From NCBI GenBank assembly GCA_000004985.1, contig GG739354.1: a DNA stretch of 1,659 nt; one strand, given 5' to 3'. The position numbers and the translations under genes were made by a program. The DNA comes from Naegleria gruberi. Its lineage: Eukaryota. Below are positions 1-1,659 of this stretch, piece by piece. Each line of letters opens with the position of its first letter. The first letter of the stretch is position 1. Under the pieces are notes generated by a model, which had not been told where the DNA came from, did not search any database, and saw only the letters and a program-made list of their open reading frames with translations.

Positions 1-20
1 TTCGGAATCACTTTTTTTAT
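1..20. repeat. Copy 1 of a ~20-nt spacer motif 'ttcggaatcacttttttta', sitting at the window edge
   Basis: Seen in sequence: 1-19 'ttcggaatcacttttttta' vs 373-392 'ttcggaattcacttttttta' (identical except one inserted t). The copies are 372 bp apart and the flanks diverge immediately, so this is a motif repeat and not a long tandem subrepeat. Confidence 0.7.
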
Positions 21-224
21 GTTTGAAACATGCTCAAAAATCAATTTCTATAAAATAAAATCTTTACAAAAGGTTATATAGATAATAGATAGATATATAT
101 TCATAAAAATCATTGTCAACTTTTGAACGGCTGGGTTCTAGCCATTTTTGATATAATAGTTATTTGACTATACAATGATATATAATAATATCAATTTTTT
201 GAGGTACCCAACTCCCGAACGGCT

Positions 225-242
225 GCGATTCAGACGGTTCCG
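225..242. repeat. GC island motif copy A 'gcgattcagacggttccg'
   Basis: Seen in sequence: 16/18 identical to 305-322 'gcgattcaggcgattccg'. The two copies are 80 bp apart, inside an otherwise ~20% GC spacer. It is preceded by 'gaacggctg' (217-225), which also occurs at 125-133. Confidence 0.65.
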
Positions 243-304
243 TAATTGCATAATCAATGAATGTATCGCGTAGCTAACGTTTTCAAAAAAAAAAATGAAG
301 GAGG

Positions 305-322
305 GCGATTCAGGCGATTCCG
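305..322. repeat. GC island motif copy B 'gcgattcaggcgattccg', with an internal direct duplication of 'gcgattc' at 305-311 and 314-320
   Basis: Seen in sequence. It also contains 'gattccga' (316-323), the reverse complement of the 'tcggaatc' core of the 20-nt spacer motif at 2-9. Confidence 0.65.
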
Positions 323-365
323 ATTAAGAGACCGGTGTCCATAGATTTAATTTGATTATAAATAT

Positions 366-392
366 AGTGACTTTCGGAATTCACTTTTTTTA
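366..392. repeat. Copy 2 of the ~20-nt spacer motif, embedded in a short inverted repeat (agtga ... tcact) containing a GAATTC palindrome
   Basis: Seen in sequence: 373-392 'ttcggaattcacttttttta'. 'agtga' (366-370) and 'tcact' (381-385) are reverse complements flanking 'ctttcggaat'. Confidence 0.7.
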
Positions 393-689
393 CATTCGAT
401 TTAGACGATTTAATGGTAGTATAATTGAGTATACAGGTCTATTATAAAGAATATATTGGGTAGAAACGGGTTAATTTTTTTAATCGATTTTATGCATATA
501 TTACAAGAGGAATATAATGTTTTACAGTATTTGGTTATTTTAAAATCGGCTAGAAATGAAGTGAGGACAAAAATTTTAAAAAATTTCAGTCAAAAATATG
601 GTCATATTTATCAGTAAACTATATCTTGTGGATTTATATATTAATAGATTTTTCGTTTTTGACACCTCTATTGTAAACACTATAAGATT

Positions 690-745
690 ATTTATTTATA
701 GTTATTTCCATATCTACTTTCGAGTTCATCGACCCCCCCGAAATG
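690..745 (+). promoter_or_regulatory. Candidate RNA polymerase I core promoter / transcription start neighbourhood at the AT-to-GC boundary
   Basis: Inference only. 'tttatttatagttatttccatatctactttcgagttcatcgacccccccgaaatg' spans the transition from AT-rich spacer to the GC-rich block and ends in a C7 run (733-739). Pol I promoters lie at the IGS/ETS junction in characterised rDNA units. I recognise no specific consensus. Confidence 0.2.
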
Positions 746-964
746 TCTGAACTTCAGTTCCTAACCTTGCGGACAGCAGGATCCTAAGGGATTACCCTCA
801 TCGAGGGTATCAACGCCCTTCGGAGCCCCCAATGGGTCAACCACCCGTTGGGGCCTGCTGTTCACACCGGGGGTCGGTAACCCTCCCCGCCTGATGAAGG
901 GCGGTGGGCACCCCCAGCCCTTGCGGCTGGGAGCCAAGGCAGCGCGTAACTGCGGGGCGCTGCT

Positions 965-980
965 AACCAACCAACCAAAC
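965..980. repeat. (CCAA)n microsatellite-like tract 'aaccaaccaaccaaac'
   Basis: Seen in sequence: three perfect CCAA units at 967-978. Confidence 0.8.
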
Positions 981-988
981 CTGACCCG

Positions 989-1031
989 CCACCAGCCAAC
1001 CAGCCCACCAGCCAGCCAACCACCAGCCACG
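989..1031. repeat. CA-rich low-complexity tract built from two imperfect ~20-nt units (991-1010 'accagccaaccagcccacca', 1011-1030 'gccagccaaccaccagccac')
   Basis: Seen in sequence: 'ccagccaac' occurs at 992-1000 and 1012-1020, and 'accagcc' at 991, 1007 and 1022. The 60-nt line 961-1020 has 30 C and 7 G. Confidence 0.7.
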
Positions 1032-1173
1032 CGCCCTCTGGCCCACCCAGGCCACGCGTGCGGTCGAGGCACCCTACAGCCAGCCGGCAGAACCCACGGC
1101 CATTCCCACGGCCAACGGTCCAACCCGCTGCCAGTCCTGACCCCAGGGCTGTCCAGGGAGCCTCCCGCGTGTG

Positions 1174-1183
1174 TGACCCGGGA
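1174..1183. repeat. Exact 10-mer 'tgacccggga', also at 1381-1390; both copies are followed by 'gagcc' (directly at the first, after a 'c' at the second), and the first contains a CCCGGG palindrome
   Basis: Seen in sequence: 1174-1186 'tgacccgggagcc' vs 1381-1396 'tgacccgggacgagcc'. Separately, 'gggagcct' occurs at 1156-1163 and 1180-1187. Confidence 0.6.
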
Positions 1184-1246
1184 GCCTAGGAGGGCCCCCC
1201 AACCGTCCGGCCCAACCGCTGCCCCTGGGGCCGATTCAGATACCTC

Positions 1247-1340
1247 AACCGCAGCCTTTTGGGCTGCCCACAGTCAAACCGCAGCCTTTTGGGCTGCCCA
1301 GATCCTACCAGCCTACCACCGCAGCCCTTTGGGCTGCCCT
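1247..1340 (+). repeat. Three direct copies of a ~24-nt unit (1247-1270, 1277-1300, 1317-1340), each a perfect GC stem-loop: GCAGCC-UUUUG-GGCUGC in copies 1 and 2, GCAGCCC-UUU-GGGCUGC in copy 3
   Basis: Seen in sequence: 'aaccgcagccttttgggctgccca' twice and 'caccgcagccctttgggctgccct' once. Stems are 1251-1256/1262-1267, 1281-1286/1292-1297 and 1321-1327/1331-1337. Unit starts are spaced 30 and 40 nt apart. Confidence 0.8.
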
Positions 1341-1370
1341 ACCACCACAGCCAGCGAAGCCTGGACCGAG

Positions 1371-1440
1371 GGGAAACCCTTGACCCGGGACGAGCCAGCT
1401 GTTTTTCAATATTGATTACCCGCATTAAGCGGGAAACCCT
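1371..1440. repeat. Exact 10-mer direct repeat 'gggaaaccct' at 1371-1380 and 1431-1440, spaced exactly 60 nt
   Basis: Seen in sequence. The second copy overlaps the 3' arm of the hairpin at 1420-1434. Confidence 0.6.
1420..1434 (+). other. Small stem-loop 'cccgc-attaa-gcggg' (5-bp GC stem, 5-nt loop) in the distal ETS
   Basis: Seen in sequence: a perfect inverted repeat. Any function, such as a pre-rRNA processing signal, is inference. Confidence 0.4.
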
Positions 1441-1460
1441 CGCAAGAGGAACCCCATACC

Positions 1461-1477
1461 TCAGAGACCCAAACGAT
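1461..1477 (+). other. Small stem-loop 'aaacga-ttcat-tcgttt' (6-bp stem, 5-nt loop) about 130 nt upstream of the 18S 5' end
   Basis: Seen in sequence: a perfect inverted repeat. Functional role unknown. Confidence 0.35.
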
Positions 1478-1605
1478 TCATTCGTTTAGGCTCAAATCGA
1501 GTTCATAATGGCAAACGGATGGATAGCCAGTAGGTGGTGCAAACCAACGAACGCTTGAAATCCAACCGGAGCGCAAACAAGGTAAAACTCGTTTTGCTCC
1601 AGTGA

Positions 1606-1659
1606 TACCTGGTTGATCCTGCCAGTACTATATGCTTGTCTCAAAGCCTAAGCCATGCA
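1606..1659 (+). rRNA. 5' end (partial) of eukaryotic small-subunit (18S-type) rRNA gene; the gene continues beyond the window edge
   Basis: Seen in sequence: 'tacctggttgatcctgccagtactatatgcttgtctcaaagcctaagccatgca' matches the universally conserved SSU 5' terminus and the EukA/NS1 primer region (canonical TACCTGGTTGATCCTGCCAGTAGTCATATGCTTGTCTCAAAGATTAAGCCATGCA), with a few substitutions and a 1-nt shortening. The exact mature 5' nucleotide (1606 vs 1607) cannot be fixed from sequence alone. Confidence 0.9.

Follow-up and report, generated by a model that had tools for sequence, protein, structure and literature searches.

RESULTS

Gene content and source of the locus

The window, by which we mean the whole 1,659-nt stretch of DNA analyzed here, contains the end of a spacer, what is probably an entire 5' external transcribed spacer (5'ETS), and 54 nt from the 5' end of an 18S rRNA gene (Table 1). 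An Rfam scan of the window detected nothing beyond 18S, and a scan for tRNAs returned none. The start of 18S carries an unusual signature (AGTACTATATGC ... AAAGCCTAAGCC), and a 20-mer drawn from it matched 21 contigs in one metagenome scan, in 18 of which the last ETS bases before 18S read GCTCCAGTGA. The 18S 5' end also departs from the eukaryotic consensus, with AGUACU-AUAUGC and AAAGCCUAAGCC. L013, L015, and L021 share the 18S 20-mer, have another ETS end, and lack an AT-to-GC step (L013 is GC rich throughout); these contigs presumably belong to other lineages. Viral contigs scanned with the 18S signature and with a 20-mer from the junction gave no matches to either.

Longer related contigs, examined with Rfam, have an 18S gene of ~2.02 kb and 33 to 40 nt between 18S and 5.8S. 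Contig L022 overlaps positions 179 to 1659 of the window at 99.3% identity and runs through 18S, ITS1, and 5.8S into 28S, with an intron-free 18S of 2,020 nt and a 33-nt ITS1. It is matched exactly by both of the ITS primers published for Naegleria, giving an amplicon of 409 bp, and through L022 the element is seen to have Naegleria-type 18S, ITS1, 5.8S, and ITS2. GIR1 twin-ribozyme introns lie within the 18S of three related contigs (L002, 5720 to 5917; L009, 8337 to 8533; L014, 3155 to 3363), and L012 has a plain group I intron within 18S (5918 to 6255). To our knowledge, GIR1 has been reported only from Naegleria, Allovahlkampfia, and Didymium. The 18S and ITS1 sizes of L022, the exact primer matches, and the GIR1 introns of the relatives identify the window as Naegleria rDNA, in keeping with the AT-rich protist host that the first-pass annotation had surmised.

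All Naegleria rDNA is carried on ~4,000 copies of a 12- to 16-kb circular extrachromosomal plasmid, CERE. Published CERE annotations divide it into rDNA (18S to 28S, ~46% GC) and a nonribosomal sequence (36 to 38% GC), with no ETS, promoter, or start site named. The 14,161-nt contig L002 has both ends inside 28S, overlapping by ~127 model positions, which is the pattern that end-to-end assembly of a ~14.0-kb circle would give. L009 runs from the 28S end to 18S and includes one spacer. For the species of the window, contigs cover 6.5 kb of the element. The spacer is AT rich, bears repeats, and cannot be aligned between taxa except for a few short islands, as published for CERE. The reading of the locus as an IGS/5'ETS junction thus stands as a spacer/5'ETS boundary, but the "IGS" is most likely the nonribosomal sequence of an extrachromosomal circular rDNA plasmid, not the spacer of a tandem array.

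Table 1. Features of the window, with positions counted from its first nucleotide
Feature	Position	Strand	Basis or remark
AT-rich nonribosomal spacer, fast evolving, 27.6% GC	1-728	+	Composition; only short islands align to L009
Degenerate subrepeats of ~80-92 nt built on CGATTCAGACGG	117-410	+	Copies at 133-146, 226-239, 306-319, and 397-410
Distal block TTTCAGTCAA, matching TTTC(C)AGTCAA	584-593	+	-143 from the C of CGACC; equal distance in window, L009, and L018
TTTGAC, invariant; candidate upstream promoter element	658-663	+	71-72 nt upstream of CGACC in 5/5 taxa
Proximal semiconserved segment (ATATCTAC..TCGAGTTCA); likeliest Pol I start interval (inferred)	710-728	+	Comparative
P1 5' strand AUCGACCCCC	728-737	+	Comprises TCGAC and the greater part of the C7 run; coincides exactly with the composition change point
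Conserved block TCCTAACCTTGCGGACAGCAGGAT	759-782	+	Begins 36-37 nt after CGACC in 5/5 taxa; 768-780 is the P2 5' strand
P2 5' strand GCGGACAGCAGG	768-780	+	Within conserved block 759-782
P2 3' strand CCUGCUGUUCACA	854-866	+	Minimum-free-energy fold
P1 3' strand GGGGGUCGGU	869-878	+	Immediately 3' of P2
5' external transcribed spacer	730-1605	+	GC-rich core 730-1400 (C 40%, G 26%); conserved part of 46% GC, ~1345-1605
173-codon ORF, judged spurious	894-1415	+	By-product of GC-rich sequence
18S rRNA gene 5' end	1606-1659	+	Rfam RF01960 SSU_rRNA_eukarya, 55.8 bits, E 8e-14

The compositional step and the proposed GC-rich leader

GC content averages 27.6% over positions 1 to 728 and 66.7% over 729 to 1400, falling to 46% both at 1401 to 1605 and in the start of 18S. 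The likelihood of a single change point is highest at 720 and 729, where the log-likelihood gain reaches 94.7 nats compared to a maximum of 12.8 in 2,000 shuffles. Close to the step, the contrast is milder, with 22 to 30% GC in the 20 to 100 nt to its left and 53 to 65% in the 20 to 100 nt to its right; 70 to 77% is reached only from ~860 onward, and the AT-rich block itself holds an island of 41% GC at 181 to 340. The first-pass annotation had described an abrupt switch from ~20% to 65 to 75% GC at a C7 run and proposed a sliding GC analysis to place the breakpoint. The abruptness is borne out by the change point, and the C7 run does lie at the boundary, at 733 to 739 (the string quoted there spans 715 to 746). 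The AT side is less extreme than described, and the range given for 729 to 1400 holds for the mean and not for the first 100 nt.

The 5'ETS is contiguous with 18S and is conserved near the 18S boundary, where positions 1345 to 1605 are 84 to 95% identical across many loci. A further conserved block lies in its middle (~1047 to 1173), and its length ranges from 490 to 1,615 nt among taxa. The leader has three copies of a hairpin unit, AACCGCAGCCTTTTGGGCTGCCCA, two of which are kept in L009, and L009 lacks its CCA-rich microsatellite-like tract (ACCAGCCA units); these tracts (1247 to 1340 and 965 to 1029) account for variation in leader length. In the species of the window, mature rRNA has 47 to 48% GC, whereas the ETS has 62% overall and 67% in its core. 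A separate compositional constraint on rRNA, suggested initially, does not explain the step, because the GC richness belongs to the leader and not to the rRNA.

The GC-rich block contains an open reading frame of 173 codons that is called a gene on four public contigs and has no Pfam match on record. It resembles the unexplained "ORF upstream of 18S" of N. gruberi. The homologous DNA in L009 is read in another frame and has large indels, and no protein-level conservation was found in other taxa beyond the conserved nucleotide stretch. Given this loss of frame in L009, together with ORFs that overlap one another on the two strands, this ORF is probably spurious, and we rejected a protein-coding role for the GC-rich block. 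The annotated gene would be the one point in favor of reading the block as a foreign or protein-coding insertion, or the step as an artefact of chimeric assembly. This reading can hardly be credited: the same junction is present in four independent contigs from different samples (L022 to L025; 99.3 to 99.9% identity to the window), which argues against an assembly artefact, the same architecture recurs in all relatives, and the ORF has neither a conserved frame nor a recorded family match.

In related contigs with enough upstream sequence, the step lies 490 to 1,615 nt upstream of 18S. All share one profile, in which ~200 nt of 45 to 49% GC adjoin 18S and are preceded by a GC-rich block of variable length and then by an abrupt drop to 30 to 40%.

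A conserved single-copy module on the AT side of the step

To compare the junction across lineages, we used the window and four distinct relatives (L009, L016/L017, L018, and L002), giving five taxa. In all five, the step is found at the same place as the sole conserved single-copy island just upstream of the GC-rich block. The island has four parts, namely, TTTC(C)AGTCAA, TTTGAC, the junction element T-CGACCCCCCC, and a downstream block at 759 to 782. An alignment of related spacers had been proposed early on as a way of finding a conserved block at 700 to 745, and such a block is indeed found across the relatives. Identity to L009 amounts to 72% over 552 to 601, 76% over 702 to 726, and 92% over 752 to 776.

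The spacing of these parts is strictly kept. If the taxa are treated as independent, and given the rarity of the hexamer in these spacers, the placement of TTTGAC in the four other taxa would arise by chance with a probability of ~2e-12. More telling than this figure, the interval between TTTGAC and CGACC is conserved in length but cannot be aligned in sequence across the five taxa, and such fixed distances with free intervening sequence resemble those of protein-bound promoter elements. The distal block TTTCAGTCAA includes GTCAA, which on the opposite strand reads TTGAC. In four of the five taxa, a T-rich stretch and then YAC occupy -18 to -13. The junction element T-CGACCCCCCC (729 to 739) sits at the step in all five, with the variants CAACCCCCCT in L009 and CGACCCTACC in L017, and is followed 36 to 37 nt on by the block TCCTAACCTTGCGGACAGCAAGAT. 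The module as a whole covers 584 to 739 on the plus strand, 867 to 1,022 nt upstream of 18S, with conserved stems from 728.

Several observations indicate that this arrangement is unique within the spacer and specific to its position. Between L009 and the more distant L018, the collinear spacer match nearest to the GC-rich block spans -20 to +60 around the junction, and the remaining matches, all further upstream, are short repeats that are off register. With a profile of the module (-90 to +62), we obtained exactly one strong match per element and nothing elsewhere. No significant copy of the junction was found elsewhere in the window (the best local score, 22, was reached by 23 of 200 shuffles), nor were duplicates found in the spacers of L009, L017, L018, and L002, and we therefore rejected a spacer-promoter duplication. 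Two further candidates were set aside. The likeness of ACTTTCGGAATTCA (372 to 385) to ACTTTCGAGTTCA (716 to 728) is a weak match, and a sigma-70-like arrangement of TTGACA and TATAAG separated by 16 nt (659 to 686) was treated as a coincidence in AT-rich DNA, because its -10-like part is not conserved in L009.

The rest of the AT side evolves quickly. Seven of the 10 within-species single-nucleotide polymorphisms (SNPs) fall in 179 to 729 and three in 730 to 1659 (Fisher p = 0.046), which makes them ~4-fold denser on the AT side; none of the 10 touches the conserved blocks. A 34-nt element at 209 to 242 (CAACTCCCGAACGGCTGCGATTCAGACGGTTCCG) is conserved in L009 and L018; in these two and in the window, a copy precedes the junction by ~500 to 510 nt. 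In L009, it is inverted and 100% identical across 28 nt, and in L023, it is repeated ~300 nt further upstream. L009 also has, at 5343 to 5360 (~1.4 kb upstream of the junction), a segment GTCAATTTTGACCCCCCC in which GTCAA, TTGAC, and a C-run occur all together. That the subrepeats of the spacer are enhancer-like or terminator-like would be only a guess.

The spacing of TTTGAC and CGACC holds in all five close taxa, and in the more distant L004, L005, L008, L012, and L014, neither a profile hidden Markov model (HMM) nor multiple alignment detected the module or any convincing homology to it. All five of these contigs instead read TATA|GG exactly at the AT-to-GC step. Because they have another junction and no module, the module elements are clade specific. 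The TATA|GG clade looks like a different version of the promoter, and TATA|GG is a common Pol I initiator shape. Its presence at the step would fit rapid promoter turnover and support a general link between the step and initiation. Read toward 18S, the step lies at ~1940 in L004, ~971 in L005, and ~815 in L008; the same three contigs carry a second GGTATATATAGGG-like string 60 to 75 nt downstream of it, and L005 and L008 have ACCCACCTTGTAACA in common ~115 nt upstream of it.

Candidate RNA stems at the start of the proposed leader

Folding of positions 725 to 904 predicts a nested domain in which stem P1 encloses stem P2 (z = -4.4; strands in Table 1). Compared with shuffled sequences, the P2 duplex is significant in three of the five taxa (3/300 for the window, 1/300 for L018, and 0/300 for L002), and L002 has a diverged P2 5' strand with its own matching 3' strand. 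For P1, the 26 to 28 nt directly 3' of P2 are among the best ETS-wide partners of the junction element in all five taxa (rank fractions of 0, 0, 0.085, 0.033, and 0.023; combined p = 2e-5). P1 and P2 are each weak individually in L009, L017, and L018, and pairing of a C-run with a G-run is easily obtained in sequence of 67% GC.

Substitutions in the relatives are matched across P1. In L017, the C-run is interrupted and its CCCUA faces UAGGG, and in L009, TCAAC replaces TCGAC (G to A) opposite a change of C to U. A covariance model with both stems, built from the species of the window only, recovers L009 (E = 2e-16) and L017 (E = 7e-4) at full length at the junction. The best local match of L018 also falls there (E = 0.046 when 701 nt were searched with filters off), and L002 is only weakly matched at the junction (E = 1.4). 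In the three-taxon model alignment, 93% of P1 and P2 cells are paired, compared to 36 to 50% when the partners are slid, and five pairs change on both sides. This alignment comprises three sequences fitted to a model that already contains the structure, and we take the pair counts as moderate evidence because of the small sample and this fitting. In this small sample of three to five taxa, secondary structure in the ETS appears to be kept by compensatory change.

These results suggest that a conserved RNA stem, with the C7 run as its 5' strand, accounts for the run better than a promoter motif alone would. If P1 forms in the pre-rRNA, then the junction element is transcribed, which would place the start at or upstream of ~728.

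DISCUSSION

Our preferred interpretation is that the step probably marks the spacer/5'ETS junction, with a Pol I promoter occupying the final ~150 nt of AT-rich sequence and transcription starting at or just upstream of ~728. The step itself, the conservation, the fixed spacing, the single copy, and the stem complementarity with compensatory changes are observed; from these, we infer that the AT-side blocks are promoter elements and where the start lies. The step at 720 to 729 would be the beginning of a structured, GC-rich pre-rRNA leader, the first ~150 nt of which would fold with P1 enclosing P2 and with TCGAC and the C-run as the 5' strand of P1. The promoter would consist of short elements at fixed distances, namely, TTTC(C)AGTCAA at -143, TTTGAC at -72, and TCGAC at the junction. 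Transcription would start at 728 or a few to a few tens of nucleotides upstream of it, most likely at ~700 to 730; a start very near P1 is favored because the TTTGAC-to-P1 and P1-to-P2 distances are both fixed to within 1 nt. The junction element would then have two roles: it would act as initiator region and also supply the 5' strand of the terminal stem. The initial proposal of a Pol I start within a few tens of nucleotides of the step, with the C7 run as part of the promoter, is therefore retained in its first part as the best reading, whereas the C7 run more likely belongs to an RNA stem, with the start on the AT side.

A more speculative extension, possible but one we doubt, is that these elements represent an undescribed Pol I promoter architecture shared by Naegleria and near relatives. 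It would comprise three copies of T(T/C)GAC spaced ~72 nt apart, with GTCAA at -143, TTGAC at -72, and TCGAC at the junction. This last, proximal copy and the C-run would jointly act as the initiator region on DNA and as the 5' strand of the terminal stem of the pre-rRNA, and the whole might be coupled to the replication origin of the plasmid.

Other placements of the start have to be weighed against a start near 728. Transcription might begin far upstream (>150 nt and possibly kilobases away) in AT-rich sequence, so that the step would lie within a long 5'ETS, at the point where a structured GC-rich domain sets in. Very long leaders occur in some protist rDNA episomes, P1 puts the C-run in RNA and so requires a start upstream by a distance that P1 does not fix, and conserved repeated elements are also found at about -500. 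Such a start is nonetheless unlikely, given that the AT side shares the composition, divergence, and SNP density of the remaining spacer and that near the ETS no collinear island other than the conserved one is found. Moreover, a spacing of 71 to 72 nt that is fixed while the interval is free fits DNA-bound elements better than RNA. Conversely, the start might lie downstream of the C-run, at ~740 to 815, perhaps at the purines that first follow the run or close to GGGTATCAAC (805 to 814), in which case TCGACCCCCCC would be purely a DNA core element and P1 and P2 would be fortuitous or act at the DNA level. In all five taxa, a pyrimidine run does give way to purines at 739/740, where L017 and L018 read CCAGGTAC, which we take to resemble opisthokont Pol I initiator regions, and GGTATATATAGGG-like strings occur 60 to 75 nt past the step in more distant relatives. 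The position-specific complementarity of P1 and P2 in five of five taxa, with its compensatory changes, and the recovery of both stems in relatives by the covariance model leave a downstream start with only a slim chance.

A different function for the AT-side blocks would be compatible with a promoter nearby. TTTGAC, GTCAA, and the repeats at 117 to 410 might serve plasmid replication or maintenance, as an origin or a fork barrier, and not transcription. In other extrachromosomal rDNAs, origins lie in the 5' spacer near the promoter. The Naegleria element has a single origin within its nonribosomal sequence; that of N. gruberi has been mapped to a 2.1-kb fragment, and vectors make use of a 636-bp piece. 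The literature on extrachromosomal rDNA covers Didymium and Physarum. We consider a replication role improbable, since the distance of the blocks from the first leader nucleotides is kept to within 1 nt and an origin would not need such phasing.

Identification of a promoter and 5'ETS in this plasmid family would have practical consequences. In the literature searched, no cis sequences driving CERE rDNA transcription have been defined, nor did we find any description of a Pol I promoter, ETS, or initiation site from Naegleria. Attempts at expression vectors for the brain-eating amoeba N. fowleri are held back because defined cis elements are lacking. The candidate promoter proposed here is precise, with three short elements at fixed spacing and a conserved 5'-terminal leader stem, and would be useful for engineering Naegleria. 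As a type of feature, a Pol I promoter/5'ETS junction is nothing out of the ordinary; its annotation in the CERE plasmid family is new within the literature searched. Our analysis would also correct existing annotation, as ~0.9 kb of "nonribosomal sequence" is probably transcribed leader and the ORF there is probably spurious.

The closest points of comparison are the CERE elements described from N. gruberi, N. fowleri, N. australiensis, N. jadini, and N. pringsheimi. Like the window, these have an AT-rich, repeat-rich nonribosomal spacer and rDNA of ~46% GC, and their published annotations contain unexplained ORFs upstream of 18S. Those annotations assign everything outside 18S to 28S to nonribosomal sequence, whereas we argue that ~880 nt of it is transcribed leader, and they leave the upstream ORF standing, whereas we argue that the ORF of the window is spurious.

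The extrachromosomal rDNAs of Didymium/Physarum, Tetrahymena, and Entamoeba are likewise non-Mendelian, multicopy rDNA molecules, with repeats, a promoter, and one or more origins in the 5' spacer. They are all unrelated in sequence to the window and differ in form, those of Didymium/Physarum and Tetrahymena being linear or palindromic and those of Entamoeba being circles with two units. Their start sites are experimentally supported (that of Didymium rDNA was placed by similarity plus read mapping), whereas the Naegleria start proposed here is a prediction from sequence comparison.

In its organization, the module is similar to bipartite Pol I promoters, such as the upstream and core elements of yeast and the upstream control element (UCE) and core of vertebrates, which also consist of short elements upstream of and overlapping the 5'ETS start, with strict spacing and variable intervening sequence. 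Bipartite promoters turn over rapidly between lineages, as would the module, which is absent from more distant relatives. There is no sequence similarity between the two, and the proximal element of the module, itself predicted from comparative data, differs in being also the 5' strand of an RNA stem. Pol I initiators of the TATATA(A/G)GGG type are found in plants and several protists. Their likeness is seen in the TATA|GG step of the distant relatives L004, L012, L014, L005, and L008, whereas TCGACCCCCCC occupies the step in the window and its four nearer relatives, from which TATAGGG is absent. The 5' end of the yeast 5'ETS forms helices that scaffold the small-subunit (SSU) processome. The Naegleria leader would be similar in having a conserved stem domain at or near its first nucleotides, a resemblance in structure for which homology is not demonstrable.
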